Source: a virus. From it: a stretch of DNA of 64,000 bases. The notes below the pieces were generated by a model, which searched no databases, was not told where the DNA came from, and worked only from the letters and a program-made list of their open reading frames with translations. Made by a program: the position numbers and the translations under genes. Below, piece after piece: positions 8,057 to 64,000 of the stretch (position 1 is its first letter; every line of letters begins with the position of its first letter). Location of the stretch: IMG/VR virus record IMGVR_UViG_3300042301_003793. The stretch is one strand, 5' to 3'.

Positions 8057-8089
8057 AACTTGGACATCTTTTAGTTAAATGTCCAAGTT
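8057..8089 (-). terminator. Hairpin downstream of the SSB gene
   Basis: 11-bp inverted repeat aacttggacat / atgtccaagtt just past the 8098 stop. Confidence 0.6.
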
Positions 8090-8097
8090 AATTAATA

Positions 8098-8964: not shown

Positions 8965-8995
8965 ATATATTATTTATTAAAAGTTTACAATAGAA

Positions 8996-9024
8996 ATTAT
9001 AGTTAAAATTTGTGTCGCAGTCAA
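8996..9024 (-). promoter_or_regulatory. sigma70-type promoter for the SSB / replication operon
   Basis: Minus strand TTGACT-N17-TATAAT, about 30 nt upstream of ATG 8964. Confidence 0.75.
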
Positions 9025-9029
9025 CAAGA

Positions 9030-9062
9030 AATTTTAAGGTCGTCTTGTGCGACCTTAAAATT
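9030..9062 (-). terminator. Hairpin separating the structural and replication operons
   Basis: Perfect 13-bp stem aattttaaggtcg / cgaccttaaaatt with 7-nt loop, overlapping the 9061 stop. Confidence 0.7.
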
Positions 9063-9744: not shown

Positions 9745-9745
9745 C

Positions 9746-9970
9746 TTATCCGTTTAATAATGTTTTTATTCCAGATTTTGTTTCAACCTGAATTTTTTTA
9801 AATTGTTTCATTGTGTTATCAACTCTTTCAATTAGACCATCTTTCATTCTAACTGTATAACAATCACCAGTATCTAAATCACATACTTCTTTAAATCCAT
9901 TACCAGCGTCTTTTTCTGACATTCTTGTGTTCTTACCTAAGTAATTATCCAATATTAGTTTTGTGTTCAT
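9746..9970 (-). CDS. Hypothetical protein
   Basis: 74 aa; 1-nt gap to the next gene; TATTTATA motif upstream. Confidence 0.7.
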   Translation of the reverse strand: MNTKLILDNYLGKNTRMSEKDAGNGFKEVCDLDTGDCYTVRMKDGLIERVDNTMKQFKKIQVETKSGIKTLLNG

Positions 9971-10013
9971 ATTTTTTATTTATTTATAAATATCTTACTT
10001 TATAAAAAAGTTA

Positions 10014-16864: not shown

Positions 16865-19800
16865 TTAGTTAAATGTTATTTTATTATTAAAGTTATTATC
16901 ATTATTGATATTATTATCAGAATAAGTTTGTTTTAATAATTTTTCATTATCTTTATAGTTATTATCTTTTTCAGTTGAATATTTCATTTTAGTTTCAAAT
17001 GGTTCAATTACGTAGTTTTTGAAAGTTTGATAAGAAGGTCCGTCTTCAAAATCTTTTAAAAGTTTTATTTCGGTTTCTTTTTCTTTAACAAAAAGTAATT
17101 TTAATTTCTCACAAATATCTCTTATGTCTTTTTCCATTAAAGTATTTTTCTTAACTAGTTCGGTCATTAAACTTTCAACAAATGGTTTATATCTTGCGTC
17201 ATCAGTAAAAATACTTGACATACATAGATAAAATCTTTCTTCCTCTGCTGTTGAAAACTTAAAGAGTGGTGAGTCTGATTTTAATAATGGTTTAAAATTA
17301 TAATCGTCTGTTATTACATCTTCGTTTAATACATTGCTGGATTGAAGTTTCGTAATATAATCAAGTAATATGAAACTTACATTAGTTTGATAATTTTCTG
17401 CAATCAAATTAAATGGTGTTGGGTTTGGTGATGGTGTTGGTAGTTGTAAGTTATAAACTTTAAATTTACCAGTATCTAATCTATAACCATCTATTTTGTG
17501 ATTAACTAAATCTAACTTTCTAAAGGTTTGTACATAATCTTCTTGATATTTTGTAATTTCATTTTGTGGTCCTATAAGTGTTTCATTTAATTCATCTAAT
17601 CTTTCGGTTATTATATCAATTAATTTATTTTTAAGTTGTCTAATTGCTGAATCTGGATAATTGTTAGGATTAATAACTTTTTTAATAATTGGGTTTTTAT
17701 CGTCTTTTACATCATTTTTAGTTTGTCTAATAATGTTTTCAACATCATCTTCAACTTTTGTTGGTTTCCCAAAAATTTCAGTAAACTGTTCATCATCATC
17801 ATATTGTGCTAATTTACCTGAAAAATATTTAACATTTTTATAAAAATATTGTATAAAACCATAATTTGTTACATCATTAACTGTTTTTAATTGGTCAAAA
17901 ATTGTTGTAAAATAATTTTTAGTTTTATCAGATAGTTCTTTAAAGATATCAGTATATTCTATTTCACCTTCTTCATATTCACCATTATCAAATGATATTG
18001 TACTCAAAATTTTACCGATTGTTGAACCTCCAGTATTTGTTATAATATCTGGAACATCAGCACTAGTTACTTGTACTGGTGGTGGTGGGGTTTCTTTAAC
18101 TGAAAGTAATTTTTTAGCGAAGTCTTCATCATTCTTTTTTCCACTTTGATCTGTTGCAACAGCTCTATCGTCGTATATTTCGGTGTTAGCGTAAAAATTA
18201 AACGACAACGCATTTTGTAATTGAGCTACTGGTTCTGCTAGTCCATGTCCACCAATAAAATCAAAACTCAATGAAACTTTAGCAATCATCGGTTGAACAC
18301 CAATTCCTTCTGGATTAATGTCGTATATTAATGGGTCATAAGTTATTTGTAATTGTGTTGGTACAATTTTAGTGTGATAAAAATCTCCAACTCTTAATAC
18401 CAATATTGGTGGTGTTCCAAAAGAAGTATTTCTTGCGTCATTATATTTTGGTTTACCATCTGGACCAATTACTGGAATTGTTTGACCTGGTCTAACACAT
18501 TGATTAAGAAATGTTAATCTAGCGTTTAAACCTTCTGGTGTTGTTGAGTGAAAGGCAGGATGAAAGTATTTTATTTTGTCTTGGATGCTCGCAAGTACCA
18601 TCGGTTGGTCTTCTTTTATTAAATCAAAATAATCACATTCAGAAAATAAAAACCTAAGTACTTTCTTTGATATCCCTTCTTTTATTTTTTTTGCCGGATC
18701 AATTGGTTTAGGTGTGACTAGGGGTGGAATAGGTACAATATCAATAGTTGTTGTTGATGTTGTTACTGATGTTATTGGTGGTATTGGTAATGTTGTAGTT
18801 GTAGTTGTAGGCGGTGGAGGAGGTACGGTAGTAGTAGTTGTGGTTGTTGGTACTGGTTTTGTAACTTTAATTTTACCAATACCAACTCTACGACAAACCA
18901 TTGCAGGAACACTATACCATTGTGATTCATTAGTTACATACCCCAAATTAACATCTTTTATGTTGTTGGTGCAATTGACACCTTTTCCGGCACCATTGTT
19001 TGTCTGTGGTATTATAAATTGTTCACCACTTGCCGTGTATTTAAATTTAACTTTACCTTGACTTTGTAATGTCGCTATTGTGTCATTACCAAGTTTTTGT
19101 TTTAAAAACCATTTTTTTACAGAATCATTCCTTCTTTGTGATAAATTATCATTATATCCAACTGAAGCTGGGGCGGATGCGGATCCTTGTAATTCCAAAA
19201 TAACAGTACCACCTTGATCTACAATAATTTCTTTGAGTTTTGGTAGCAGTTCGTTTTTAATTTTTTGAAAATTACCAATAATTACTTGATCAAAGAATGG
19301 TATTACTTGGGCTCTTGTAAATAAATCACCACCACTACTTACTTTTAGAGGTGCTGAACTTGAATTATATACTGTTTTTCTTTTCAAATAGATGTCATAC
19401 CAATATTGGTAATCTTGATTATTAGGTACTGTGGTTTCCCAACTTCCAGACCCAAATGGATAATCATTATCAAAATAAAAAGCATATCCTTCCCATTCTG
19501 TTAATTCAGTATTTGTCATTTCTTGTTGTTGGTCACTAACGACTGTTGTATTAGTACCACCATTACCATTATTATTTGAGACATTTGTATTGTTACCAGT
19601 ACTAATACCACCATCGTCACTCCCACTTGAATTTGCATCAATTTGTGGTTCAGGACTTTTTGGTATTTCATCAAGAATTCCGTATTTTTCTTCATCCGTA
19701 AGTCTTGGGTCGGCTAATAATTTTTGATATTCATAAAGTTGATTGACTGGAATTGTATTAAATTTAGCTGCCAAATCATATAAATCATATTTAACACAAC

Positions 19801-27135: not shown

Positions 27136-30100
27136 TTATACATCATCAAACGACGCACCAGTTGGTGTAATGTAGAATGTGATATCAATAAATTCTAAAG
27201 ACTTAGTTGGTTTAATGTAGATTTTACCTACCATTTGATTTTTATCCAAATCTTCAGTGTCGTTAGAAACTGTTACTCGGAAATCATATAAACCTCTATC
27301 TCTTCTTATTGAATCTAAAATTGGGTTAACCGCATTTAAGAAGTCTTGTCTTACTTGTTGGTCGTTTTGATCAAACAATAATCTTACAGACACAGCAGAA
27401 ATTAACTTACGCGCTTGTAACAACAATCTTCTTACGTTGATTCTATCAAGTGCTGATTCTCTTACTTGAAGTGTTTTGTTACCCCAGATTACTGTACCTA
27501 CATCAGCAAACGTAGCAATTGGGTTAATTCTTCCAAGATAAAGAACGTCTCTGTCTTCTTGTGTTAACTTCTTACGAGCTTTAATTGAGTTTACAATACC
27601 ACGAGTATAACCTGCTGCCGCAAACCAAGGGAATGCAATATTATCAGTAAGTGCCAAGTTTCTTGTAACCTCAGCCGTTGCTGGAATATAAATCTGTGTG
27701 TTGTTTACACTATCTCTTGTTAATACCCAAGGATAATAAGTTGCGGTATAGTTAGAATCAATTCCTGTTTCTTCTAACAAATCAACAGCTTCTTGTGGAT
27801 AGATAAAGTTATCACCTTCAGTTGTTGTTGCAACAAACATTTGGTAATCTGGCATTGTTGTAATATAAAGTGAATCTGCTCTTTCATTTTCAACCATATC
27901 AATTGTTGCTTCAACAAGATTATTATTATTATACAAATCAATACCTGGTGTTGTTAATATATTGATATTTACGGCTTCTGGGTTGGCAAATGTTCTAATA
28001 CCTAATAAGTAAGCATAATAATCTGTATTACCATATTCAACACTTCCATCACCGATTGCAATTTGTTTAAACAATCCATTTCCTTTACCTTTTGGATATC
28101 TTAAAGATGAACAAGCACCATTTAAGAATCCTGCTCTACCTAAAGTATATTTATCGGCATTTGTTCTGTATTCTCTATAGATATCCCAACCGTCAAATCC
28201 ACCATAAACCATGACTGTGAATTTTCTAGCGTTTAATCTGTAGTAAGGATCAGTTGGGTCTGTAGGTTCTGAAGAGAATGTGGCATCACCAACTTCAAAA
28301 GCCGAAGTACCGCTTGAAGCAAATGCTCCTGAAATTGTAATTCCACTAGCAAGTTGGTCCATATGGAAACCTTTGGTTTTGAAATCCCAATCAAATGGTT
28401 CTCCAGTACATAAGTTAAATGGTTTTCTTTTTCCTTTATATTGGAAAAAGTCAGTATCATAACCCCAGTAAGAACCTAAACCTAAATATGTTCTTCTAAC
28501 ATTATCTCCAGGACTTGTGAAAGCATCGTCACCACCACTAGATAAACCAAAAGGAGGGTTAAACACTAATTCACCTGGTGTGAAATATTTAGTTTTATAA
28601 ACTGGGAATGGTGATTTTCCGCCTGGATACTCTCTAAATGTATAACCTTCAAAACCACAAGGAATTGCATCTATCGGAGCATCTTCGTTAATCTCAACAA
28701 GAACGTATCTAGATTTCAATTCATATTCACCATCTAATGTACCAATTTTTTTAGCAATAAAATTGTTTTCTTGTGGATTCATAGAACAGTTTGTGAATTT
28801 TTCTAACACAACTGGATTAGCATCCGTATCAAAATAATCTCTAATTAAAACAGTAAACGTTTCGTTATTAAATGATAAGTCAGTAAATGATATTTTAACT
28901 TCTGTGTTAGCACTATTACCATCAGAAATTGTATATAGTTTAAATAAGTTATAAACTTTTGTACCTCTTAATTCTGATACAACCCAAGGTGTACTTGGTG
29001 ATTGGAATCTTTCTAAATAGTATCCAATACTGTTTAAATCATTACTTTGAGCACCTTCACTAACAACTAGTTCGGCATTTAAACCTCTAATATATCCTTT
29101 ACTCCAAGCGTAGTTAAGTAAATTTAAATATGATTCTTCAACCATTAATGGAACTTGAGTTCTAGGTTTTTCAAAATTACCGCGACCAAATACTTTGTTA
29201 ATATTTTTAGCGTCACTATTCGATAGTGAAACTTCAAAATCAAATTCTTTACCATCATAGTTAGTGACTCCAACACTAAATGGTAAGAATGGATTTTTAA
29301 GAACACCACTATATTGACCAGTCATATCAATTGTTACATCAGTTACACCAGTAACTTCATAAATTGGATTTGTTCCGTCAGAATATGGTGAAATACCTCT
29401 TGAGCGTAAAGTTGTAACAACTAAATCATCGTATTCAGTAAATGATGAACCAGTATAATAATAAATCATACCAACTACAGAACCTGTAAAACATACATTT
29501 GGTATTGGTGGTACTGTTGTTGTAGTGGTTACTGGTAAAATTGGGTCACAAACAAACTGAAGTGTAATTGTAACGTCATTAGGGTCTAATTCAGTAGGGT
29601 CACTCGAAACTAAATTACTTAAAGACCCTGTACCAGCTAATCTTTGATAATCATCATTAGGGAAACTAACAATAGTACAACCACTAACTTCACCAGCTTC
29701 GATTGTTACAGAATCACTAATTAATATTGGTAATCCACTTGTTACATCTATTGTTGCATCAAAGGATAATGTTACATCATTTGGTACTGGTAATGTTGAA
29801 GATAAACAAAACTGTACAACAATTGAACCTGGTGCAACACTAACAACTAAATTATAAGGACCAAAATTCCCAGTTGTTGTAGTTGTTGTTAATAAAAAAG
29901 GATTATTAAGTGGGTTACTTAAACTTGTATAAACATTTGTTTGCTGTAAATTGTCAACAGATGTAAAGAAAGAAAAACCAGAATATAATCCACTTCCAGC
30001 ATTTTGAAATAGTGCGTAATACCAAGAATCGTTTTGTGGTGAACTTGGATCTGAATTTTCAAAAACCACATTGTCAACCGCAAATACGTTTGTTTCAGCT

Positions 30101-44211: not shown

Positions 44212-45108
44212 TTAGTAAATTATTTTATCATTGTTTTCTGTCTTTAACACATTTCCGTTTTCAGTGAGTATATAGAAAGTTTCTGGTAACGGACTTGGTG
44301 TTGGTGTTGGAAAAGGTGTTGGTGTTGGTGTTGGTGTAATTGGGAACTGTTCAAATATTTCCCAAGTAGCATCACTTGGTGTCACAACAATATTTCCAAA
44401 CGCGTCATTCCTTGATAAATTATCAAAATTTTCATCTAATATAACTTGTGTCGTTCCAGATGTAAAACCAGTCGATATTGTAAGACCAGTTGATATTGTA
44501 ATTGGATTTCCACTATAAACACCTAATATGTGGTCAAAATTAAATTGTACGTCTTGACCTAGTATTGTTTTATTTGCTGTTAAATAATAATCAACAACAA
44601 CAGACCCAGATGTAACAACGGCCGTTAATTGTAAATTAAGTGGGATTGGTTGTACACAAATTGTTGTTGTAGTCGCAGTAATAACCGGACTTGTATTACA
44701 ACAAGGAAATTCACTAACATAACAATTATTATATTCTAATGAATCACCAATAAAACTTTCTTGTACATTAATATATAGTTTGTCTCTTAAAGGTAGTATT
44801 AAAACACCTTCATCATTTCTAAATAAAAATTGTCCTTCATATCTACCAACCTTTCTTGTATCTGTATTTGAAAACTGATAATAAACATAATATTCTGGTT
44901 CGGCATTTGGGTCCAACATTTCTTTTGCAACAAATCCTGCTGGTCTTGTGATAATCTTTGGTATTCCAGTATCAACATCAACCATTGAAAAGAATATCGC
45001 AGATTCTTCAATAAGACTCATCATTCTATTATAATCACTTCTGCCATCCTTGACAACTTGCATTTTTAATAAAGGAAGAGTTGCATTTTTCTTAATAAAG
45101 AATTCCAT
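44212..45108 (-). CDS. BppU-like baseplate/adaptor protein with Ig-like module and PT linker
   Basis: MEFFIKKNATLPLL..., YQFSNTDTRKVGRYEGQF; C-terminal ILTENGNVLKTE. Confidence 0.55.
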   Translation of the reverse strand: MEFFIKKNATLPLLKMQVVKDGRSDYNRMMSLIEESAIFFSMVDVDTGIPKIITRPAGFVAKEMLDPNAEPEYYVYYQFSNTDTRKVGRYEGQFLFRNDEGVLILPLRDKLYINVQESFIGDSLEYNNCYVSEFPCCNTSPVITATTTTICVQPIPLNLQLTAVVTSGSVVVDYYLTANKTILGQDVQFNFDHILGVYSGNPITISTGLTISTGFTSGTTQVILDENFDNLSRNDAFGNIVVTPSDATWEIFEQFPITPTPTPTPFPTPTPSPLPETFYILTENGNVLKTENNDKIIY

Positions 45109-45359: not shown

Positions 45360-45927
45360 AAAATGTAAAGAAGAAAAAGAAATTTGTGAGTTCTATAAGG
45401 ATAGAAAATCAAAAGACAGTAAAAGGTCAAGATGTAAAAAATGTTTAAATTTACAAAACACTTTATATGTTAAAAAAAATAAAGATAGAGTTAACTCTAT
45501 TAAACAAAAATATGTTGATAATAACAAAGAAAAAGTAAAACAAAGTAAAAAAGAATGGTTTGATAAAAATCCTAACTATAGAAATGAATGGACTATTAAT
45601 AATTATAAAAATGATTTTCTTTTCAGATTAGTCAATATAATGAGAGCAAGAACAAGACTTTTTTTAAAATCAAAAAATATTAGGAAGAAAAACAATACAT
45701 TTGAAATCGTAGGGTGTTCACCTGAATTTTTAAAAGAATATATTGAAAAGCAATTTACTAAAGGTATGAATTGGGAGTTATTTGGTAGTCACATACATAT
45801 TGACCACATAATCCCATTATCTTTTGCAAAAACAGAAGAAGAAACATATAAACTTTGTCATTATACAAATCTCCAACCACTTTGGGCTGAAGATAATTTA
45901 AAAAAAAGTAATAAAATTTTAAATTAA
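45340..45927 (+). CDS. HNH-family endonuclease with N-terminal Zn finger (homing-like)
   Basis: CKKC...CKKC; HIDHIIPL...CHYTNLQPLWAEDNLKKSNK. Confidence 0.8.
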   Translation: METKICKKCKEEKEICEFYKDRKSKDSKRSRCKKCLNLQNTLYVKKNKDRVNSIKQKYVDNNKEKVKQSKKEWFDKNPNYRNEWTINNYKNDFLFRLVNIMRARTRLFLKSKNIRKKNNTFEIVGCSPEFLKEYIEKQFTKGMNWELFGSHIHIDHIIPLSFAKTEEETYKLCHYTNLQPLWAEDNLKKSNKILN

Positions 45928-47585
45928 CTTTCTTTTCTTAATTCTTTAGAATAATGATCAAAGCGTTCATGCTCAACTGGTGTTAATAATAACAAACCAC
46001 CCCTTAATTGATTTTTCTTTGTTAATTGGTAATGATGACTCATCCAAGTATTTTCAAAAGGGTGTGTCCATTTTGTATCCAAAAACATTTTTTTATTACC
46101 TTCTTGACTTATAATATGTGTCCAATTACAATAGTATATTTCACCATCAACATATGGTAATCCTTTATGTGACATTATATTATTAAACTTGGTTTTTGGT
46201 ACATTTGGTTCTAATCCATTGGTTGGTAAATTGGGTTTTTCAGGAAAATACTCATTTCTTTTTTCTTGTGGTAGGTTATACCAGGGCCAACAAGTCCCGT
46301 TGTCACCGTAAAATTCACTATAATTTATTTTGAGAAATTCAAAATCTTCTTTATCCATTATTTCAAAACACTTGTTAAATAAATTTGGTGTGTATCTATT
46401 AAATCCGTTTTTACAAGTTTCATCTGGTTTATTTTGGAAAAACATATCATCCTCTGACCACCACATATATTGTAAATCCGTGTTAGCAAAATGTTCGGCA
46501 ACAAATTGTCTTCCACCACAAATACCCAAATTATTCTTCTTAATGTGTTCAAAACCATATTCATCACATAACTCTTTATACCTTGGTGTTGTTGAAAGAT
46601 CTGTTGAGTTATCAAGTAAATATTTTTTTGTTTTATGTATAAAATTTGGGTCATAACCCAACATTGATTTTATTAAAGTTTCAAATTGTTTTGGTGAGTT
46701 AAACGTGATTACATATAAACCAATATCTCCTTTATATTTTGTTACAACTTTTTTTCCCTTATTTTTAATTACAACCGTATTATTTTTTACGTCTTCAAAA
46801 AATTTATATACCAAACCATTTGATTCTATTTCACAATAATCAATCATTGATGGATAAAGATAAGTCATAATTGTAAAAATACTCTCTTCGGTACCCATTA
46901 AATTTTTATTTAATGTATCAATAAGTAATTGGTAATATAAAACATTTAAGTCAGCAATTTTTTGTTTTGTTCCACCAAAAAATCCACCTCTTGAGACAAA
47001 CTCTGTTTTTGTTTTTGCGTAGTCACACATTTTTTTATAATCAAATCCGTGCACTTCGTTTTCCGCTTCATAAGGAAAAACAACAAACATAAATTTATCA
47101 AATAAACTTTCTATTTTATCTAATACATTATCACGAGTAAAATACCCAAGATTAACCGTGTTAGTTAATCCAGCGTCTATCCAGTAAAGTTTTTCGGAAT
47201 TAAAAGGATCCAAAATAGAAGCGTCGTGTAGTAAAAACATTTTGGACATTACAAGTGGATTGTAATATTCTAATCTTGCTTGTGTTGATTCTTTTAACCA
47301 ACCAGAAATATTATACCAATTTTCATTTGTTCTTATTTTTTGGATTTTATCAAAGTATTCGTTATTTCTAAACCAAGATAAATCCCTATTGATAAATTTT
47401 GTATTAGTTGGGTTTCTATATTTGAATACAAATTCTTCTAAGTGGTTATCACCAAAAATAATTAAATTACAATCTATTTCTAAAAGTTCTTTAAATTTTT
47501 CTAAATAATAATCAAAAGATCTATTCCATCCTTCATTAAGATTACCCCTTCCAATATCCCAAAGACCTGTAACAAGTGTTATCAT
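45924..47585 (-). CDS. HtrL/YibB(WlaTC)-like domain fused to a GT-A glycosyltransferase domain
   Basis: N-terminal TLVTGLWDIGR, WIDAG, GGFFGG, GTEESI; C-terminal YVITFNS, WSEDDM. Confidence 0.7.
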   Translation of the reverse strand: MITLVTGLWDIGRGNLNEGWNRSFDYYLEKFKELLEIDCNLIIFGDNHLEEFVFKYRNPTNTKFINRDLSWFRNNEYFDKIQKIRTNENWYNISGWLKESTQARLEYYNPLVMSKMFLLHDASILDPFNSEKLYWIDAGLTNTVNLGYFTRDNVLDKIESLFDKFMFVVFPYEAENEVHGFDYKKMCDYAKTKTEFVSRGGFFGGTKQKIADLNVLYYQLLIDTLNKNLMGTEESIFTIMTYLYPSMIDYCEIESNGLVYKFFEDVKNNTVVIKNKGKKVVTKYKGDIGLYVITFNSPKQFETLIKSMLGYDPNFIHKTKKYLLDNSTDLSTTPRYKELCDEYGFEHIKKNNLGICGGRQFVAEHFANTDLQYMWWSEDDMFFQNKPDETCKNGFNRYTPNLFNKCFEIMDKEDFEFLKINYSEFYGDNGTCWPWYNLPQEKRNEYFPEKPNLPTNGLEPNVPKTKFNNIMSHKGLPYVDGEIYYCNWTHIISQEGNKKMFLDTKWTHPFENTWMSHHYQLTKKNQLRGGLLLLTPVEHERFDHYSKELRKES

Positions 47586-48826
47586 AAATCACCAATTAAT
47601 CTATCACACCAACCTTTTGATTTTGAATGTGGCCAAACAACCCAATATTTCGGTTTTTCTTTTGCGTTAAACTCCCTCCATATTTTTCCATAACCGTCGG
47701 CGTCTGTTTTTATTCTTTTGATTTCTTCTTCTTGTGCGTCCATACGATATATTGTTTCATCTTTATCGTTATGAAATGCAACAACTAAAAAATCATAATC
47801 GTCTTCTGGTATTTTATCTAATGGAATATCTATACAATGTTTGAATATTCTTAAAAAACTTTCTTTCCATTCTTTATCATTTTTATAATCATAAGGATTT
47901 GGTGGATAGTTTTTATCTATTGTATATTGTTGTACGGATCTTTTTTCAAAAAGAACACCGGCGTATTTTTCATAATCACGTATTGTTCTTTCTTTTCCAA
48001 AACCATATTTTAATTTTCCTTTAAATTTTTCACCGTCAACACCTAATACTTTTCTATTTTTACTATGTGAACTTTCATTTTTCTTATACCATACGCTATC
48101 ATCATCCCACTGTTTTGTTCTACCTTTTCTTGTGTACTCGTGATAAATTACAATTTTATGTGGATGGAATAAATCATATCCGTGAGTATAAGCTCTAACA
48201 GCAATTGATATTTCTTCTCCGTGAAAATAATATTCTGGGTCGTGTTGAACTTCTATTGAAAATTCACCTAATGTAAAACAGAAATGTGCCGAATAAAATC
48301 TTGCTGGGATTGGTTTTTTTAATTCTTGCCAACCTGGTATTACTTCTGGTAAAAAGAAAACAACACCTTCTGGTGTAAATCTATCAAATACCATTCTCCA
48401 GGGTTCTGTAACTCTTCCTTGTGGGTCGTTGTCTGGATCAAAAGATGAAACATAACCGGTAAGAAGTGGTTTTTTATAACCATCTTCTTGTAATTCTTTT
48501 AACATATTAATTAATGTCTCATCCCAATTTTTTTCAAAACGCATATGAGAATCTAATTGTAACGTGTATGTTTCACCACTATATAATTGTTGTACTTGAT
48601 GTCTTGCCCAACACACACCAGTGGACGCTGTGTAGACAATATCTAAAATTCTAAATCTATCATCACTCTCATATTCTGAAAGGTCATCAAAACCATCTTC
48701 TGGGTGATATTGTCTTGCAATCCCCAATCTTAAATTTTCTGGGTATTTTGCTTTGTTCAACATATCTTTAATTGTTGGTATAAGCTGGGGGTCTCGATAA
48801 GAGGCTATTTGTACAAATATTGTCAT
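47582..48826 (-). CDS. GT60-like polypeptide / hydroxyproline alpha-GlcNAc transferase
   Basis: IFVQIASYRD, GVCWAR, LQLDSHMRF, YFHGEEI, HEY motifs. Confidence 0.85.
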   Translation of the reverse strand: MTIFVQIASYRDPQLIPTIKDMLNKAKYPENLRLGIARQYHPEDGFDDLSEYESDDRFRILDIVYTASTGVCWARHQVQQLYSGETYTLQLDSHMRFEKNWDETLINMLKELQEDGYKKPLLTGYVSSFDPDNDPQGRVTEPWRMVFDRFTPEGVVFFLPEVIPGWQELKKPIPARFYSAHFCFTLGEFSIEVQHDPEYYFHGEEISIAVRAYTHGYDLFHPHKIVIYHEYTRKGRTKQWDDDSVWYKKNESSHSKNRKVLGVDGEKFKGKLKYGFGKERTIRDYEKYAGVLFEKRSVQQYTIDKNYPPNPYDYKNDKEWKESFLRIFKHCIDIPLDKIPEDDYDFLVVAFHNDKDETIYRMDAQEEEIKRIKTDADGYGKIWREFNAKEKPKYWVVWPHSKSKGWCDRLIGDL

Positions 48827-48842
48827 AGTTAGTTAAAAATAA

Positions 48843-49061
48843 CTAACACTGATAAAAATTAAATATTTCACAATCGTTTGAATCGATAAGTTTTACAAGT
48901 AGCGAACCAACGTTATTTAATGGGGGTGGAACCTCAAAGGTATATGCGGAAATGTATGTTCCGCCGGAAACTAAATAACAATAAGTGTTTGTGACATCAC
49001 AAACATACACATCGTATGGTGGTGTTCCAGTGGTTCCAGATATTGTAATTTCGTGTAACAT
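48843..49061 (-). CDS. Small beta-rich Cys-containing protein (possible virion decoration)
   Basis: 72 aa, co-oriented, 1-nt gap from the upstream gene. Confidence 0.7.
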   Translation of the reverse strand: MLHEITISGTTGTPPYDVYVCDVTNTYCYLVSGGTYISAYTFEVPPPLNNVGSLLVKLIDSNDCEIFNFYQC

Positions 49062-49062
49062 A

Positions 49063-49581
49063 TTAACTACATATAGGACTTAATGTTGGTGTAGGTGTAT
49101 TAGTCGGTGTATTTGACGGTGTAGGTGTATTAGTCGGTGTATTTGACGGTGTAAAATTTGGAGGCAACGGAGTAACACACAAGTCCCAAGTAGGAGTTGG
49201 TGTAGGTGTTGGTGTTGCAGTTGTTGTTGCCGTCGGAGTATTTGTAGGTGTAGGAGTCTGCGTTGGTGTTGGTGTGTTAGTAGGAGTCTGCGTTGGTGTT
49301 CTAGTAGGTGTTGGAGTTGGTGTTCTAGTAGGTGTATTTGTTGGAGTTGGTGTAGGTGTTGGCCTTGGTACATTTAAAAAGTTTGTACAATTACCACCAT
49401 CTGTTGATATTGTATATGTCCCATAAATTTCTTGTTGGGGTGTTAATAAATCTGGTTGAAAAGTGTATGGAAGTATAACAGAACCAATATTTATTGTAAT
49501 AGTACTATTATCTGGTTTGAATAATATTTGAGCAGGTTCACCGCTAAAATTTACACTTTGTATTGTAATTATCTGACTCAT
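49063..49581 (-). CDS. Mucin-like PT-repeat protein
   Basis: About 70-aa beta domain, then [14 protein letters not shown]... to the C-terminus; own TATTTATA motif. Confidence 0.8.
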
Positions 49582-49612: not shown

Positions 49613-49816
49613 TTATTTTTTAATTTTAATGTATTTGAACCAAACTCTTTCGTGTAAAAAATAAATAATTGGTTTTAATATTAATTCACCTAAACCTAAT
49701 AAAGAAGATATTTCTACTGACGCCCCAAGACAATATGCGACTACAACTGTGGTGATTGTCCCAAAAATTCTATAAGAAATTGTTTTTAATAAATGTCTTT
49801 TTAAGTCTGACTTCAT
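49613..49816 (-). CDS. DUF2061-like small membrane protein
   Basis: RHLLKTISYR...YFLHERVW. Confidence 0.75.
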   Translation of the reverse strand: MKSDLKRHLLKTISYRIFGTITTVVVAYCLGASVEISSLLGLGELILKPIIYFLHERVWFKYIKIKK

Positions 49817-49817
49817 T

Positions 49818-50273
49818 TTAATTTTTTTCCAATATCAATAAAACATCATCTTGTATGATTGGGTCAACTAATTTTTTCCAGTAATCATCTTTATTTTTTA
49901 TACAATTTCTAATACCAGTTGCAGAAATCCCACCAATTTCTTTTGGTGGTGTAAATTCATTTACTTCATATCCAACACCGCGACCAAAATTAACAGATTC
50001 AATATCTGGAATAATGATAACTTTAACATCATCACCTTTTGATTTATGGTACTTCTCAATCATAGAAACTGTTTGTTCTGTTGTAAAAGGATTTTTTTCA
50101 TCAGGTTCAATATCTCTAATCATAATTAAAACTGGTACTCCTTCATTTAATTTTTGTTGGATTAACTCAATGTGACCAAAATGATAAGGTTGATAACGAC
50201 CTACAAAAACTGCATACTTTTTACTTTCGTTATTTGTTGGATTTCCTCCGTGGTTTTTCTTTTCCCAACTCAT
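49818..50273 (-). CDS. HIGH-superfamily nucleotidyltransferase (NadM/cytidylyltransferase-like; candidate minimal ATP sulfurylase)
   Basis: GRYQPYHFGH, KNPFT, ISATGIR. Confidence 0.8.
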   Translation of the reverse strand: MSWEKKNHGGNPTNNESKKYAVFVGRYQPYHFGHIELIQQKLNEGVPVLIMIRDIEPDEKNPFTTEQTVSMIEKYHKSKGDDVKVIIIPDIESVNFGRGVGYEVNEFTPPKEIGGISATGIRNCIKNKDDYWKKLVDPIIQDDVLLILEKN

Positions 50274-50725
50274 ATGTGTTTAATTATTTCGTTTAATGAT
50301 TCTTGTGGATTAACACCTGTTGTATTAATATCAACAAAATTTTCTGATGGTTGTTCATACTCATCTGTATGGAAATGTTCTCTGCCTCTAATGTCTGTTG
50401 TATGAACATAAAACTCAACTAATAAATTTTGTAAATCATATTTAAAACTTTCTCTTAATTCTTTGTAAGGTGCAACAAGACTTACAATTACATCGTATCC
50501 TTGTACTAATAAAAATTTTGCAATGTCTTGAGCTCTTTTGATGTTTTCTTCTCTACCTTCTCTACCGTATTTTTGGTTATTGAAAAGTCTTCTTAATTCA
50601 TCACCGTCAATATGGAATACTTTATTTCCATATTCTTTTTCTAAAATTGTTTTTAACATTGTCGCTAATACAGTTTTACCAGCTCCTGGTTGTCCTGTAA
50701 ACCAATAAATCTTTTTTTCTTTCAT
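50270..50725 (-). CDS. cysC: Adenylylsulfate (APS) kinase
   Basis: WFTGQPGAGKT, IDGDELR, VSLVAPY, YEQP; ATG 50725 preferred. Confidence 0.85.
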   Translation of the reverse strand: MKEKKIYWFTGQPGAGKTVLATMLKTILEKEYGNKVFHIDGDELRRLFNNQKYGREGREENIKRAQDIAKFLLVQGYDVIVSLVAPYKELRESFKYDLQNLLVEFYVHTTDIRGREHFHTDEYEQPSENFVDINTTGVNPQESLNEIIKHI

Positions 50726-50727
50726 AA

Positions 50728-51546
50728 TCAAAAATAACCGAATTGGTCGTAAAACCATTGATGTTTTTGTTTTATCCAGTTACAAGCTGGTGTTCCAAGA
50801 ACTTCTTTATAATCTAATTTTAATGGTTCAATTTTAGATTTAATATTATGGTCACCATAAATTCCATAAACAGAATCATCTTCTTGTGTTATTTGTGTAA
50901 CATTATCAAAGTCGTGTTCAAAGTATGGTAACTCAAGATATTTATAAATTCTTTCCATTTCTTTTTTTGGATTTGAAGTGAAGTCTTCGAATTTAACAAA
51001 TAACATTTTATGATTAATACCTTCTTTGAAGATTTGATAAAGTCTTTCGACAGCCAAACCAACTGGTTGTGATTGTGACCAAATATCAATTCTTTTTTCT
51101 GTTGTAGTTCCTTGCATTTGCGCGTGATTAACAACACCAGAATCCATATGTTGACTCTTTCTAAAATTCTTTTCCATTGAGGCAAAGATTCCACGTAAGT
51201 CTCTTACCATACAAATAATCTTTGGTTCTGGATAAAAAGAATTTAAAAACCCATAATGAATACCCCAACCTCTACTTTTATCTAAAACATATGGTTTATC
51301 TGTTACACCATTAAAAAAACCTAACATACCTTGATTACAAAAGTTTAGAAAACCTTGTTTCATTAATTCTGAATCTTGTGCTTTAAACTCAGGTGATGAA
51401 GTGTAGTTTGCTCTTGCAGCATAAACTAATTCTAAAACACCAGATGTTGGTGTTACGTAAAACTCTGGATTTTGTCCCATAACATTTTGAAGTAATGTTG
51501 ATCCAGCTCTTGGTAATGAACTTTGGAAAAATATTTTTTCTACCAT
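50728..51546 (-). CDS. PAPS-dependent sulfotransferase
   Basis: 5'-PSB loop LPRAGSTLL; 3'-PB MVRDLRGIFAS; KFEDF. Confidence 0.88.
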   Translation of the reverse strand: MVEKIFFQSSLPRAGSTLLQNVMGQNPEFYVTPTSGVLELVYAARANYTSSPEFKAQDSELMKQGFLNFCNQGMLGFFNGVTDKPYVLDKSRGWGIHYGFLNSFYPEPKIICMVRDLRGIFASMEKNFRKSQHMDSGVVNHAQMQGTTTEKRIDIWSQSQPVGLAVERLYQIFKEGINHKMLFVKFEDFTSNPKKEMERIYKYLELPYFEHDFDNVTQITQEDDSVYGIYGDHNIKSKIEPLKLDYKEVLGTPACNWIKQKHQWFYDQFGYF

Positions 51547-51549: not shown

Positions 51550-52434
51550 TTAATTTTTTAGTGTTTCTATTATTTCGTTTATATTAAAGATGTTTGTATC
51601 AAATAAAGGACATTCGTGTATTGTACCATTAAAGTTGTAATCAAATAAGTAACTATCTGGTAACTTAACTGTTGTTGGTAGTTCTGCTATAATGTTTGTG
51701 TGTAATGGATAACCAAATACTTTTGGTGATGTACCAATCCACAATATGGTTGATGGTAGACCCATAGCAGCTGCCGCATGTTGTAAACAAGAATCAATTA
51801 ATAATCTTTTTTGAGCATAAGCTAATAATGAAAATAATTCCATATTAGACATAGGTTCTACGTGAGCCTCAACATTTTGTAAAACATTTGTTTGGTCTCT
51901 ACAAATTTGAATTATGTGATAATATTGTGAAAAGTGGTCAACAATTTTTTGAGCAACATCAAAAGGAATATCCCTTGTCCAAGAATATGGATATGGCTGT
52001 TCTTGTAATGGACCACCGTTTGTTTGAATGACCATTACAGGTTTTTCTCTTTTCCATTTATTAAATGCAACTTGTTGTTGTCTTAAATTAAATGAAAGTG
52101 ATGGCATTTCACCGTTATATTCTAAACCAAAAAGTTTACACCAATTCATAATTAATGGTAACTTTTTTTGGATATGGTCTGTTGTAAAATAAGGTTCGTG
52201 TTTAAAAATTAAACTATCTTTATCTTTAATGTAATCATCATAAAAATATGGTGTCATACCAATTCTATATACTCTATCAATAAAATCTAAATTTAAAAAT
52301 ATTTCTGGGTAAGCACAGACAATAATTAATTCCCTATCTGGGTGATTGTTTTTTATACATTTTGCAACAGCAGTTGATAGAACGTGTTTTCCTAAACCAC
52401 CTTCTAAATGAAATATACTATATTTTTTTTCCAT
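51550..52434 (-). CDS. GT-B glycosyltransferase, GT9-like
   Basis: GGLGKHVLST; LIDSCLQHAAAAMGLPSTILW. Confidence 0.75.
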   Translation of the reverse strand: MEKKYSIFHLEGGLGKHVLSTAVAKCIKNNHPDRELIIVCAYPEIFLNLDFIDRVYRIGMTPYFYDDYIKDKDSLIFKHEPYFTTDHIQKKLPLIMNWCKLFGLEYNGEMPSLSFNLRQQQVAFNKWKREKPVMVIQTNGGPLQEQPYPYSWTRDIPFDVAQKIVDHFSQYYHIIQICRDQTNVLQNVEAHVEPMSNMELFSLLAYAQKRLLIDSCLQHAAAAMGLPSTILWIGTSPKVFGYPLHTNIIAELPTTVKLPDSYLFDYNFNGTIHECPLFDTNIFNINEIIETLKN

Positions 52435-52450
52435 AATAAGATTATAATTT

Positions 52451-53368
52451 TTAATTTTTGTTAGTAAAGATAATTGCTTCGTTAATCTTATCTATTACCA
52501 TTTTTGGTTTTATTTTTGTGTGACATTCGTTTTCTCTTTCTGTTCCTAAAAATATTGGACATTTAGTTTTTATATTTGGAAACATATTAAAACATCCATT
52601 ACAAACATAAGGGTTTGTGACTCTAAAACAATCAAATTCGTTTTGACTTTTTGTAAAATTTGAAATCATAACAACTGGTACGTCATAGGCCCAAGCAAGC
52701 CAAGAAAGACCTGAAGATAAACCAACAAAGAACCTTGAACTAACAATATGGTCAATTGCAACATTTAAATCATCGTGACCGTGAAAACCAATAACATTTT
52801 CTAAATTCATTGTATTTTCATAAGAAATGTTATAAACGTTGTAACCTACATTATGTAATGAATTTACAATTGTTTGCCAACCCTCATTCCCATTATATTT
52901 CCATTGTGAAATTTCTTTAATTGTTTCTGGACCCATAGTAATTTTATTTGGGTCTATTGTTCTTAGTTTTGGAATTACTGGACATTTACCTGGTTTTGTT
53001 TCTTGCGGTAATCGCATTGTATCTTTAGCAGCATAAAACATACCACCTAAAGTGTGTGCCATATTATTTTTATCATAACCAACATCAACTAGTTTATCAA
53101 TTTCTAAAAAACCACTTTCATTTGCGTTAATAAACTCATAGTCTGGTCTATTTGATTTTAATAGGTGTGGAAAAAAAGTTGTAACCCAAACGTACTTTGG
53201 TTTGTGATAATCCATAAAAGCATCCATCAAAGATGAAAAACAAATTGTATCACCTAAACAAAATGAGTCAAAGTGTAATAATAATTCTTTTCCTTCAAAG
53301 GTTTCTAAGTTTGGCTCTCTTTCTTTATAGTTCATCAACTCAGAATTGTCGTAATGTCTTTTAACCAT
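52451..53368 (-). CDS. Aah/TibC-like protein O-glycosyl (heptosyl) transferase with Cys4 iron finger
   Basis: LGDTI, FFVGLSSGLSWLAWA, C-x2-C-x10-C-x11-C at 52523-52603. Confidence 0.72.
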   Translation of the reverse strand: MVKRHYDNSELMNYKEREPNLETFEGKELLLHFDSFCLGDTICFSSLMDAFMDYHKPKYVWVTTFFPHLLKSNRPDYEFINANESGFLEIDKLVDVGYDKNNMAHTLGGMFYAAKDTMRLPQETKPGKCPVIPKLRTIDPNKITMGPETIKEISQWKYNGNEGWQTIVNSLHNVGYNVYNISYENTMNLENVIGFHGHDDLNVAIDHIVSSRFFVGLSSGLSWLAWAYDVPVVMISNFTKSQNEFDCFRVTNPYVCNGCFNMFPNIKTKCPIFLGTERENECHTKIKPKMVIDKINEAIIFTNKN

Positions 53369-54104
53369 TTTTATATTTTAAAAGTTTAGAGTAATATTCA
53401 AACCAATATCTTTCTTGCCAGATTGTACCTTCTTCCAAATACACCAATGGTTTTTGTTGCCAAGGTTTTTTTACAATGTAGTGTAAAATTTTAATATGTT
53501 TTGGTAGTCCTGTATTTTTGAATATTTCTTTTGAATATGTTTTTAAGTAATTATATGATACTGGTATTTCAGTTATTTCATCATAAAAATAATTATTAAT
53601 AATATCTTGGTCCAGATGTTCTGTAATCCCATATATTGTTGTAAGATGTATTAAATCATCTGTTATTTTTTCAGATAAATATTTTTTTGAGATAACAAGA
53701 ACACCTGTGTTGTATTGGTCAATATATAAATCTCTAACACCACCAATATCACCATCAAAATCAATTAGATAATCAATGTTTCCTAAAATAACAACATCTG
53801 AATCTAAAAATATAATTTTGTTAAATTCAGTTAATGAAAAAATTTCATATTTAGTATAATCACCAAAAGACATTTGTTTTTCTTTTAGTTTTTCTATTTC
53901 AGAATATTTTTCGGTGTCAAATCTTTTTATGTGTATATTATTGTACATTCTTCTTGAGGCGACTAAATCTTCTGGTGTTAAATCATTTGTGATGATTACA
54001 AATGGTAATTTTTCACTAACAACTCTTGGGTTATTATCTATTAACGATTTTAACATTACCTCAAATCCTATAAGATAATCTTTATTACATACAGTTACAA
54101 ACAT
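53361..54104 (-). CDS. GT8-family glycosyltransferase
   Basis: IIFLDSD, YNTGV, DQDIIN, ILHYIVKKPW. Confidence 0.88.
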   Translation of the reverse strand: MFVTVCNKDYLIGFEVMLKSLIDNNPRVVSEKLPFVIITNDLTPEDLVASRRMYNNIHIKRFDTEKYSEIEKLKEKQMSFGDYTKYEIFSLTEFNKIIFLDSDVVILGNIDYLIDFDGDIGGVRDLYIDQYNTGVLVISKKYLSEKITDDLIHLTTIYGITEHLDQDIINNYFYDEITEIPVSYNYLKTYSKEIFKNTGLPKHIKILHYIVKKPWQQKPLVYLEEGTIWQERYWFEYYSKLLKYKNG

Positions 54105-54139: not shown

Positions 54140-54166
54140 AACCCCAACTGTTTTAAAATTGGGGTT
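54140..54166 (-). terminator. Hairpin after fibre gene 2
   Basis: aaccccaa / ttggggtt stem. Confidence 0.65.
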
Positions 54167-57375: not shown

Positions 57376-57405
57376 ATTTGTTTTTTTTATTTTTAATTTA
57401 TGTTT

Positions 57406-57431
57406 AAACCCCCACTATTAAATGGGGGTTT
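57406..57431. terminator. Hairpin terminator, possibly bidirectional, between fibres 3 and 2
   Basis: aaaccccca / tgggggttt stem with flanking T and A runs. Confidence 0.75.
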
Positions 57432-57436
57432 TTTTA

Positions 57437-61953: not shown

Positions 61954-64000
61954 TTAAGAACCAACTTCTGTTGCAAGACAAATTTCTCCATTTTCTCTAA
62001 TAAGTCTAGTCATATCGTTAAAAGATATATAAGCATGACCACCAAGACCCCAAGATTTTCCCCAACTATTTTTAATTCTAAAAACTTTTTTATTTAAGTC
62101 CACACCATTTATAAGATAAGCGTGACCACCAACAAATCTACCAGTTAATCTTATGTTTCCATTTCTATCTGGAAAAAACATTCCATTATACCAATTTGTA
62201 CCAACTACAACAGGACCAACCTTTAATACTGTATTTACAAGTGTTGATAAATCAAATGCCCAATAATAAGATTTTACTTTACCAATTTGTTGTAAATATT
62301 TTACAGCACCCCTAACTGATGTACCATTATAATTTTCACCTGGCCATTGGTCTAATTTTTGTGCATTAAAATAAATTGTACTTGGATGTACAACTGGTGG
62401 TTTGCCGGACTGTTGAACCGGTCCATCTTCCAACCAATGTGACCAGGAATACCCAACACATTGTGGTAGTGCTCCTTGATTACCCCACCATCCATTTGCG
62501 TCCCAAAATCTTTGTGTTAATATTTGTGGTTTTGTTGAGATTGACTGTATTAATTTTTGATTATTTTTAATTAGGTAATTTAAATCTCTTTTGTCTTCAA
62601 CATAAATTCTTCCTAATTCAAAAGGTAATGTTGATGCACTTGATGGTGTTATTTCAGTTTCACCACTTATTGTATATGTAAAATCATTTGTTAAACAAAT
62701 TTCTGTATCACAATCTGGACAGAAAGGATTAAACAATCTAAATTTATCTTTTAGTATATTAAAGTTGTGTCTTATTTCAGAAGAATCTAAAGGTTGTACA
62801 TACATCCTAAATTGTGAAATACCCCCTTCAAACGTACCACCAAATTCTTTTTCCAATAATATATTTGTTGTAAGACCAGACAATGATGTACCAGATAAAA
62901 CAGATGTTGGGAACAACTCTGGGTCCTGTATAAAATCACTACTTAAATTTTCACAAGTTGATGGTACTAAATTTTCGTGAAGTCCTTGTGTACCACCACC
63001 CCAAGAAATGTTAAATGGAACCCCAACTTGTTTTTCTTTGTCTGTCGGTAATGCCCTTGGGATTAGTTCTTCAAAATCTTTTATTGTGTATATTAATTTA
63101 CCATTAACATAAATTAGTAATTTACCTTTTCTATATTTTTCATCTAATAACCAACTATCATTTAACTTAACAGTTTCTATTTGTTCAGATTCTTTTTTAC
63201 CGTTTGAATATGGTGGAGCAATTAAAGTAAAACTATTGTTTGCTAAACTTTCAAGGTATTCTTTTTTTGTAATATCTCCTAGACCACCAAACCACCATAA
63301 GTCACAGTTATCTAAATTTGTATATCGTTTCCAGACAACATCTAATAAAAACCAATGTTCTTGTTCTATAAATGCTGGATTTTGTTGTTCACAATAAGAA
63401 TATATTGGTGGTGTACACCATTCTTGGATTGTATAACCGGTAACAAATGTTGTTCCAGTTCCAGTTACTGTATTTCCAGTTGTAATACATTCACCAGTAA
63501 ATCTTAAAACTTTTATACCTATACCTGGATTTTGTGGGTCACCACATAATTTGAATGAGATGTTATTCGACATTGAATCGAGTAGCGGGTCTTTTTCGCA
63601 AGTATCCTCTACGGATGTAAACCCAGAAGTAGGACAATCCAAACAATCAAGACAAGTATCACAAGTTGTACAAGTCGGTGTACATTCAGGAAGTGGTGTA
63701 TCACAACTTGGTGTAGGACTAGGAAGTGGTGTAGGTGTTGGTGTTGGTTGTATTACATCACCACAATAGTGTGTCTGACATTCCCAACCACAAGTTTCAC
63801 AAGCAAATTGATTACAACCACAACCACACGTTGCTGCACTCATAGGATTACCTTTACAAGAACCACAACCATAATTTATATGTGGGTCGTGAATACCATT
63901 TAACGAACGTGGTGGATAAAGATATATACACCTACTATTTGTAATATTTAAATTACAACAAGCACAAGTCTGTAAACAATTTGCAAGCGGTGTTGTAACT
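61954..64000 (-). CDS. 5'-truncated virion-type protein: Cys-rich and PT region + LamG-like domain + C-terminal papain-like (C1A) peptidase
   Basis: Frame stays open from 63843 to the window end. IYVNG...FEGGISQFRMY (LamG-like); NQGALPQCVGYS, GGHAY, KNSWG catalytic triad. Confidence 0.8.
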   Translation of the reverse strand, partial: VTTPLANCLQTCACCNLNITNSRCIYLYPPRSLNGIHDPHINYGCGSCKGNPMSAATCGCGCNQFACETCGWECQTHYCGDVIQPTPTPTPLPSPTPSCDTPLPECTPTCTTCDTCLDCLDCPTSGFTSVEDTCEKDPLLDSMSNNISFKLCGDPQNPGIGIKVLRFTGECITTGNTVTGTGTTFVTGYTIQEWCTPPIYSYCEQQNPAFIEQEHWFLLDVVWKRYTNLDNCDLWWFGGLGDITKKEYLESLANNSFTLIAPPYSNGKKESEQIETVKLNDSWLLDEKYRKGKLLIYVNGKLIYTIKDFEELIPRALPTDKEKQVGVPFNISWGGGTQGLHENLVPSTCENLSSDFIQDPELFPTSVLSGTSLSGLTTNILLEKEFGGTFEGGISQFRMYVQPLDSSEIRHNFNILKDKFRLFNPFCPDCDTEICLTNDFTYTISGETEITPSSASTLPFELGRIYVEDKRDLNYLIKNNQKLIQSISTKPQILTQRFWDANGWWGNQGALPQCVGYSWSHWLEDGPVQQSGKPPVVHPSTIYFNAQKLDQWPGENYNGTSVRGAVKYLQQIGKVKSYYWAFDLSTLVNTVLKVGPVVVGTNWYNGMFFPDRNGNIRLTGRFVGGHAYLINGVDLNKKVFRIKNSWGKSWGLGGHAYISFNDMTRLIRENGEICLATEVGS

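Follow-up and report, generated by a model that had tools for sequence, protein, structure and literature searches.

A GT60 glycosyltransferase of a large myovirus and its association with Pro-Thr repeat proteins in viruses and bacteria

We consider a 64,000-nucleotide stretch of viral DNA (IMG/VR record IMGVR_UViG_3300042301_003793, called the window below) that is part of the genome of a large myovirus, an uncultured tailed phage, and in it the gene of a 414-residue glycosyltransferase of family GT60. Two genes upstream of this enzyme, on the same strand, lies the gene of PT172, a protein that consists largely of a tract of prolines and threonines (a PT tract). Genes of family GT60 occur together with such tracts well beyond this one phage, and the association is statistically robust and phylogenetically broad. 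A functional link between GT60 enzymes and Pro-Thr repeat polypeptides is strongly supported by these sequence comparisons, and the PT tracts of the phage's own proteins are probably the acceptors of the enzyme. The positions of all features are collected in Table 1.

We begin with the enzyme itself, which the preliminary description of this DNA had recognized as GT60 from three short motifs. The motifs are present as described (IASYRD, residues 7-12; DSHMRF, 92-97; FHGEE, 201-205), and profile searches place the protein inside the family: Pfam PF11397, "Glycosyltransferase (GlcNAc)", which is CAZy GT60, matches with 239.3 bits (cut-off 21) and an E-value of 1.1e-70, PHROG 24687 matches across the full length (7e-162), and the closest Atlas clusters are all 100% PF11397. 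In an alignment of 44 homologues with 36-88% identity, D92, H94, E204/E205, R211 and H229 are invariant, so that the D92-S93-H94 (DxH) motif and the other catalytic motifs are conserved and the enzyme is predicted to be catalytically intact. The DxH motif replaces the usual DxD only in families GT27 and GT60 (PMC7185993), and, according to the part of the same work that cites Heise 2009, all characterized enzymes of the two families glycosylate polypeptides.

The AlphaFold2 (AF2) model of the protein has a predicted local distance difference test score (pLDDT) of 95.7 and a predicted template-modelling score of 0.90, and as modelled the protein has a GT-A fold. The top 30 or so PDB matches found by Foldseek are all polypeptide GalNAc-transferases (E about 1e-10). 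In an independent all-against-representatives structure search (VIA), mGalNAc-T1 (Z 21.4 over 278 residues, root-mean-square deviation 3.6) and Toxoplasma GalNAc-T3 (Z 20.0) stand above the generic GT-A enzymes, which reach a Z of 17 at most; more than 100 GT-A chains exceed a Z of 8. A search of the PDB by sequence gives chance matches only and no relative. The protein is not a member of GT27 itself: Pfam returns PF11397 only, and there is no ricin-B lectin domain. The catalytic domain takes up approximately residues 1 to 320, and the structural alignments run from residue 1 to about residue 330 and no further. Residues 325 to 414 or so (about 95 residues) make up a separate, conserved, beta-rich C-terminal domain that has no Pfam match and lies outside the structural matches; a subgroup of GT60 proteins from Burkholderiales does without it. 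We find neither a transmembrane or hydrophobic segment nor a signal peptide (maximum KD19 0.99), the first Rossmann strand beginning already at residue 3, and the type II membrane anchor of the Golgi polypeptide alpha-GlcNAc-transferase subgroup is absent. Because of this lack of a hydrophobic segment, the enzyme is taken as cytoplasmic. Elsewhere GT60 domains also occur in giant proteins of 1300 to 2461 residues that carry up to four of them in tandem (P0122, P0123, P0124, P0128).

The association with PT tracts can be examined in viruses by drawing loci for the tract and not for the enzyme. We compare 120 IMG/VR loci drawn solely for a (PT)8-coding tract with 120 drawn for a (PA)8-coding tract, of similar size and GC content. 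The GT60 profile is found in 9 of the former and in none of the latter (Fisher p=0.0033). The tract lies on the strand of the GT60 gene in all nine positive loci and is 0.2-2.8 kb away in eight. The nine enzymes are 27-40% identical to that of the window and belong to at least six lineages; the association is thus not a single clade counted repeatedly. Among cultured phages, GT60 is found only in the Xanthomonas/Stenotrophomonas jumbo phages XacN1, Xoo-sp13, CM1 and RAS14 (45-49% identity to the window's enzyme). When up to one mismatch is allowed, XacN1 has 37 (PT)4 sites and Xoo-sp13 has 22, with none for the control, and one XacN1 site is in the 3313-residue ORF325 beside its glycosyltransferase island; RaK2, phiKZ and GAP32 (the last being the nearest cultured kin of XacN1) are GT60-negative and have no such site. 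Five environmental relatives have 3-12 exact (PT)4 sites each.

Bacterial genomes show the association as well. Our sample is 80 bacterial GT60 loci (1.12 Mb), all of which were counted for (PT)4-coding clusters: 18 of them hold 20 clusters, and a control with the pattern reversed gives none. The background outside such loci is about 10 clusters in about 46 Mb, which makes the loci enriched approximately 80-fold. In the genomes that were scanned whole (2.8-6 Mb), the (PT)4 sites falling inside the 17-kb GT60 locus are 4 of 4, 5 of 7, 1 of 1, 8 of 14, 2 of 2, 37 of 37, 54 of 58 and 13 of 13; in five genomes (G007, G009, G011, G012 and G014) every site of the genome is at this locus. These genomes were chosen for a PT-rich open reading frame (ORF) near GT60, a choice that leaves the count over all 80 loci unaffected.

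The bacterial link appears in two independent contexts, Tat-leader proteins and VgrG spikes of type VI secretion. In the first, seen in at least ten loci of Gammaproteobacteria, Alphaproteobacteria, Acidobacteriota, Myxococcota and Actinomycetota, the cluster begins with a gene whose product has a conserved leader like those of twin-arginine translocation (Tat) substrates (RRKLLQALG...LPxKWVKPxIxxV...AHAQ), followed by a PT/PS repeat of 40-250 residues; in Halieaceae this protein ends in a hydrophobic anchor and a basic tail. A second GT60 paralogue is often present in these clusters, as are HtrL-like glycosyltransferases. Over the whole sample, a PqqD-like peptide-recognition protein (PF05402) is found in 17 of the 80 loci and an HprK-related kinase A (TIGR04352) in 13. 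The operon of Tat-leader protein, GT60, HtrL, PqqD and HprK (examples are L149:4880-12640, L152:4816-12507, L115/L116:4591-11661, L106/L108 at about 7650-12560 and L118 at about 6300-10760) has the look of a pathway devoted to the modification of a mucin-like surface protein that is guided by its leader. In two Gemmatimonadota loci, one ORF directly upstream of GT60 joins a PqqD domain (Pfam 26.9 bits) to a C-terminal region rich in PT (L094:7215-7940 and L097:7230-7955), which puts the recognition domain and the presumed acceptor on a single chain. In the second context, Ralstonia, Achromobacter and Paraherbaspirillum have GT60 inside a type VI cluster (with TssA, TagF and TssM), 1-5 kb from a VgrG spike (Phage_GPD and gp5 domains) that has a long C-terminal (PT)n run. 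In these genomes the tail is either the sole PT tract or the dominant one (L133:5599-17023, L132:13052-15523, L107:11900-14389, L153 at about 13116), and a glycosylated type VI spike in Burkholderiales is a possibility.

We turn to the PT proteins of the window phage. The preliminary description had pointed to a PT-rich protein two genes upstream of GT60, and PT172 is indeed such a protein: after an N-domain of 69 residues comes a stretch (residues 70-169) with 41 Thr, 31 Pro, 9 Asn, 3 Arg and 3 Ser, in which Pro and Thr together make up 72%. The tract can be called mucin-like because it is long and dominated by Thr/Ser and Pro, a composition that is kept across homologues. The homologues share an N-domain of about 70 residues and a PT(x)T tract of 100-200 residues, and many carry an extra C-terminal domain, either a Cys-ended module of 100 residues or a module of about 500 residues; PT172 of the window is therefore a short form of its family. 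The small protein p72, encoded between PT172 and GT60, is homologous to the N-terminal domain of larger proteins with PT linkers and repeats in the relatives. A paralogy between p72 and the N-domain of PT172 seems reasonable on inspection, lacks statistical significance (BLASTP E 0.6), and we make no claim of it. In many relatives a large protein is encoded just upstream of GT60 (L037:3932-7948, L020:6560-7948, L080:4423-7884), with an N-terminal anchor domain, PT linkers and "FxxCxSLxSI...WDvSxVTxMxxMF" repeats that to the eye resemble BspA-like leucine-rich repeats.

PT172 is not the only candidate. The gene after that of HtrL553, the second glycosyltransferase discussed below, is conserved and encodes p298, a member of a virus-only family with neither a Pfam nor a PHROG match; its likeness to BppU_N/LtfC is a weak lead only (Atlas 0.81). 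In 27 of 52 distinct p298 homologues a PT or T tract directly follows the conserved N-domain. Altogether at least five proteins of the window have PT or T linkers, the tail sheath (27136-30795, minus strand) included, and from this the likely substrate of GT60 is a class of PT linkers and not a single protein. In the sheath only the last 300 or so of 1219 residues match sheath profiles, and the T/P linker is in the large N-terminal and insert regions.

The GT60 gene also has a steady enzymatic partner. In the 80 IMG/VR loci related to the window's GT60 the order is invariant: GT60, a variable insert of 0-7 kb, HtrL553 and p298. The N-terminal domain of HtrL553 is HtrL_YibB (Pfam PF09612, 5e-21), while the C-terminal half is GT2-like, with DNSTD and EDD motifs that are invariant in an alignment of homologues with 30-81% identity. 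Its AF2 model (pLDDT 91) consists of two domains with their boundary at residues 277-286, and the best Foldseek matches are tandem two-GT-A enzymes (LH3, mimivirus R699, K4CP, LARGE1, COLGALT1 and heparosan synthase, E about 1e-11); a different orientation of the two domains in the matched enzymes keeps the TM-scores low. The PDB sequence search with HtrL553 gives chance matches only. Since GT60 and HtrL553 genes are also adjacent in high-GC bacterial chromosomes of Gemmatimonadota, Acidobacteriota, Myxococcota, Lewinellaceae and Halieaceae, the two form an old functional pair, in which HtrL553 is the likely chain extender. In XacN1 the orthologues of GT60 and HtrL553 are ORF334 (47% identity) and ORF330 (43%), beside baseplate genes. 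A 765-residue carbamoyltransferase gene directly follows GT60 in XacN1 (L026/L081, 219791-222088) and in Xoo-sp13 (L165, 223218-225515), and variable inserts are found in the relatives of the window; the glycans of the Xanthomonas jumbo phages may be carbamoylated.

The local layout agrees with joint expression. GT60, p72 and PT172 are three closely spaced minus-strand ORFs with intergenic gaps of 1 nt and 16 nt, and GT60 and HtrL553 overlap by 4 nt. No convincing terminator lies between the PT172, p72 and GT60 genes, and the sole strong terminator-like hairpin (54140-54166) is upstream of the entire gene string. With such short gaps, the overlap and no convincing intervening terminator, co-transcription of the three genes is plausible. 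The island sits in the tail/fibre module, is tightly packed and encodes no transmembrane segments. That the DNA is from a bacteriophage, as the preliminary description held, is borne out by the genes of the window, which include the tail sheath, a gp19-like tube, a T4 baseplate protein, DnaB, gp32, UvsX-like, PolB and ribonucleotide reductase. The GC content is about 30%, and a megablast search with 20 kb against cultured phages gives no match.

Combining this information, we propose the following scheme. The soluble, cytoplasmic, metal-dependent (DxH) GT60 would initiate O-glycans on the threonines, and also serines, of PT tracts, the first sugar most likely being an N-acetylhexosamine from a host-supplied UDP-sugar. 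The acceptors would be PT172 and the PT linkers found in p298, in the insert of the sheath, in the 1716-residue protein and in the papain-like protein, and the phage's modular structural and appendage proteins would receive their sugars before the virion is assembled or while it is being assembled. HtrL553 would then lengthen the chain. Products of the GT8, GT9-like and sulfotransferase/PAPS (3'-phosphoadenosine 5'-phosphosulfate) genes of the string may elaborate or sulfate the chains, and the decorated stalks would be built into virions. The C-terminal domain of GT60 is a candidate for recognizing the acceptor in place of a PqqD-type partner. The acceptor, the donor sugar, the linkage and the arrival of the products on virions are all points that we infer. 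The chances that PT172 is among the acceptors are about even, and it is improbable that PT172 is a dedicated substrate. The enzyme-substrate pair of the preliminary description thus stands as a comparatively supported link between GT60 and PT tracts and falls as a dedicated, conserved partnership with PT172: members of the PT172 family turn up in only about 35 of the 80 related loci, at 0.3-6.5 kb on the upstream side of GT60, and it is the DUF2061/PAPS module that is their fixed neighbour.

Several observations weigh against this scheme. PT172 is only a putative virion protein. About 70% of the sampled bacterial GT60 loci have no PT-rich ORF within 8 kb. Homologues of PqqD, the HprK-like kinase and the Tat-leader protein are found neither in the window nor in the 80 phage loci, so that the phage is without the PqqD and HprK partners that many bacterial clusters have. 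In the five environmental relatives, 5 of 16 PT clusters are within 10 kb of GT60 where about 1 is expected, a figure confounded by the clustering of fibre genes: PT linkers are common in fibre proteins generally, and the fibre genes lie grouped around the island. For donor and acceptor we extrapolate from the enzymes of protists, no GT60 of a prokaryote or phage being known to have been characterized. In favour of the scheme, virions of XacN1 show periodic-acid-Schiff-positive protein bands, which the authors ascribe to the glycosyltransferases ORF328 and ORF334 (PMC5852040); the bands were never assigned to particular proteins or to ORF334 (PMC5852040).

Table 1. Positions in the window of the GT60 gene, its partners and the candidate acceptor tracts
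Feature	Position	Strand	Basis
GT60 (PF11397), soluble GT-A glycosyltransferase, 414 residues	47582..48826	-	Pfam, PHROG 24687, AF2 model, fold matches
PT172, 172 residues, conserved N-domain and Pro-Thr tract, candidate substrate	49063..49581	-	ORF, homologues in about 35 of 80 related loci
Mucin-like tract of PT172, residues 70-169	49075..49374	-	Composition
p72, 72 residues, small protein between GT60 and PT172	48843..49061	-	Homology to N-terminal domains in relatives
HtrL553, tandem two-GT-A glycosyltransferase	45924..47585	-	Pfam PF09612, synteny, AF2, Foldseek
p298, baseplate-like PT-linker protein, candidate substrate	44212..45108	-	Synteny, PT linker residues 254-275 (44284-44349)
DUF2061, cytidylyltransferase-like, APS (adenosine 5'-phosphosulfate) kinase and sulfotransferase (PAPS/sulfation module), same gene string	49613..51546	-	
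Two weak GT9-like glycosyltransferases and GT8, same gene string	51550..54104	-	
T/P-rich linker in 1716-residue protein (16865-22015), further candidate acceptor	18770..18856	-	
T/P linker within 1219-residue tail sheath	29500..29535	-	
PT linker in 629-residue protein with papain-like C-terminus	63706..63750	-	

Other functions for the island can be imagined. One is that it remodels the envelope glycans of the host (lipopolysaccharide, capsule or S-layer glycan), for example blocking superinfection or the adsorption of progeny, with a lipid-linked or polysaccharide acceptor for GT60. This is the published reading of glycosyltransferase clusters in jumbo phages (PMC7824862). HtrL/YibB is named after the lipopolysaccharide core locus of E. 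coli, the tandem GT-A enzymes K4CP, PmHS2 and LARGE1 are polysaccharide polymerases, and sulfotransferase and PAPS genes would suit sulfated polysaccharides. However, we see no gene for a flippase, a polymerase, Wzx/Wzy or a polyprenyl-phosphate transferase in the island, all of its enzymes are predicted to be soluble, and it lies within a virion module. Envelope remodelling also leaves the enrichment of PT clusters at bacterial GT60 loci, the PqqD and HprK partners and the pairing with VgrG-(PT)n unaccounted for, and we consider it unlikely.

Another explanation keeps the virion as the target and moves the acceptor off the PT tracts, for example to the Ser/Thr-rich "SGGxNT" beta-helix repeats of the giant fibres (41255-44164 and 54190-61873), the PT stretches being passive linkers. 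Three giant repeat fibres flank the island, and PT linkers are generic in fibres. The PT association, however, holds in bacteria that lack such fibres, for Tat-PT proteins and VgrG tails alike, and the (PA)8 linker control shows no GT60; there is a small chance, in our estimate, that this explanation is the right one. Very unlikely is a host protein, for example a PT-rich one on the surface or in a secretion system, that GT60 would modify for takeover or defence evasion. The bacterial homologues do appear to act on cellular PT proteins, and the enzyme is predicted to be cytoplasmic, but it is the phage genome that is rich in PT clusters (about 11 per Mb; the sampled bacterial genomes have about 0.2 per Mb), the tracts stand beside the enzyme on the same strand, and the placement in a structural module suggests late expression.

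A two-step route like that of Skp1, in which GT60, like Gnt1, would attach GlcNAc to prolines that have first been hydroxylated, would suit a soluble, cytoplasmic GT60 enzyme, as Gnt1 likewise is, and tracts that are half proline. The preliminary description had proposed a look for a prolyl hydroxylase elsewhere in the genome; PF13640 is found in none of five related genomes (four of them 97-100% complete), PF03171 is absent as well, and the scanned ORFs of the window contain neither. An enzyme of the host is possible, and we regard the route as remote. Glycosylation of phage DNA bases, as in T-even phages, is hardly credible even though phage glycosyltransferases are classically DNA-modifying and the window has a C5-cytosine methylase, since GT60 has the family and fold of polypeptide transferases, its gene is outside the replication/nucleotide module, no hydroxymethylase partner is seen, and the bacterial context is incompatible. 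The methylase gene (5333-6355) is near that of a GT2 glycosyltransferase (7364-8044, minus strand), which stands among replication and recombination genes, distant from the glycosylation island.

Glycosylation of the phage's own PT tracts remains the reading that we prefer, and the next point is where its enzyme came from. Metagenomes contain thousands of close relatives of the GT60, the longest of their contigs being 322 kb. The preliminary description had called the enzyme eukaryote-style, a label that does not fit: GT60 is recorded from prokaryotes and protists (PMC7185993), and its full-length architecture is present in more than 566 species-representative bacterial genomes. The phylogeny that the description had proposed places the phage clade in a well-supported group with sequences from assemblies of Bacteroidota (Saprospiraceae, Lewinellaceae, Chitinophagaceae; SH-aLRT 97), in a tree without a defined root whose 108 sequences all come from phages and bacteria. 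A bacterial origin of the phage enzyme is what this bacterial and phage tree suggests. Some low-GC GT60 sequences binned as Bacteroidota may be phage contigs themselves; the copy from Lewinellaceae, with 62% GC and on a contig of 610 kb, seems to be chromosomal. One contig binned as Saprospiraceae (L084, CALJOK010000014.1, 230 kb, GC 0.34) has GT60 (64%) and HtrL553 (57%) at a phage-like GC content; possibly this is a jumbo-phage genome that ended up in the bin of its host, which hints at a Bacteroidota host.

Two further observations stand beside these results. In Verrucomicrobium and Prosthecobacter (L122, L127, L136) homologues of APS kinase lie no more than 8 kb from GT60, and a sulfatase gene (L149:1616-4060) adjoins the GT60 cluster of Luminiphilus; sulfation may accompany GT60 beyond this phage. 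Apart from glycosylation, the window has an ORF of 698 residues (34500-36596, plus strand) in which a complete Fe/Mn superoxide dismutase domain (residues 165-354) is flanked on either side by unassigned sequence.

Textbooks treat mucin-type O-glycosylation of Pro/Thr repeats as a matter of eukaryotic biology, and only a few unrelated systems of cytoplasmic protein glycosylation are known from bacteria and phages. The GT60 family, the concept of virion glycosylation and the presence of the gene in XacN1 are already known. In the literature that we searched, whose coverage is incomplete, we find no prior description of a GT60-PT-tract system with a tandem-GT-A partner, and likewise none of the HprK-related kinase A system or of VgrG-PT glycosylation. 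Tentatively, and with doubts, we suggest that GT60 and its tandem GT-A partner might form an undescribed, prokaryote-wide system of mucin or proteoglycan type, in which O-glycan brushes, possibly polymeric and in this phage sulfated, are built on Pro-Thr stalks. Its settings would be phage fibres and appendages, VgrG spikes, and Tat-leader surface proteins read by a PqqD-like protein, and the protist GT60 mucin pathway would be a branch of this older prokaryotic system. If GT60 does decorate PT linkers, then these linkers, so frequent in phage fibres, in type VI spikes and on bacterial surface proteins, would be glycan-bearing stalks and not passive spacers, with a bearing on phage adsorption, on resistance to proteases and UV, on stickiness to mucus and particles, and on recognition by immune systems and grazers, as well as on phage display and phage therapy.

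We close by comparing the proposed system with known ones. One of these is XacN1, which like the window phage has a glycosyltransferase island with GT60 and HtrL553 orthologues beside baseplate genes and a giant PT-containing protein, and which has a carbamoyltransferase where the window phage has its sulfation module. The XacN1 paper proposes virion glycosylation by phage glycosyltransferases and does not recognize the GT60, the PT link or the HtrL partner (PMC5852040).

Other systems share the principle of a virus that decorates itself. Mycobacteriophages and chloroviruses (PBCV-1) encode cytoplasmic glycosyltransferases that act on their own structural proteins, as is proposed here; the acceptors there are C-terminal extensions of capsid and tail-tube proteins, N-linked in PBCV-1. 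Virion glycosylation reportedly influences the immune recognition of mycobacteriophages. These systems use other glycosyltransferase families, hosts and acceptor motifs, and none of them is known to use GT60 or PT repeats.

Among cellular enzymes, Gnt1 of Dictyostelium and Toxoplasma (the Skp1-hydroxyproline GlcNAc-transferase) is a soluble, cytoplasmic GT60 like the predicted phage enzyme, and it acts on its protein before entry into a complex, as we propose for the phage GT60. It needs a prolyl 4-hydroxylase, however, and modifies a single hydroxyproline of one protein, whereas the candidate acceptors in the phage are long repeats. The GT27 polypeptide GalNAc-transferases of animals and Toxoplasma (PDB 8v9q, 2ffu, 8uhv) are the best structural matches of the phage enzyme (Z 20-21), have the DxH motif in common with it and initiate dense O-glycans on Pro/Thr-rich tandem repeats; the identity is 12-17%, Pfam places the phage protein in GT60, and it lacks their ricin-type lectin domain. 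The GT60 enzymes of protists initiate mucin-type O-glycans (Heise 2009, as cited in PMC7185993). They are type II Golgi membrane proteins of the secretory pathway, whereas the phage GT60 is predicted to be soluble and cytoplasmic, has the extra C-terminal beta domain of about 95 residues and invariably has a tandem GT-A enzyme as its partner. With these protist alpha-GlcNAc-transferases (Trypanosoma cruzi and the Dictyostelium Golgi) the phage enzyme nevertheless shares the family, the DxH motif and the GT-A fold, and its probable acceptor is likewise a Thr/Pro-rich, mucin-like tract.

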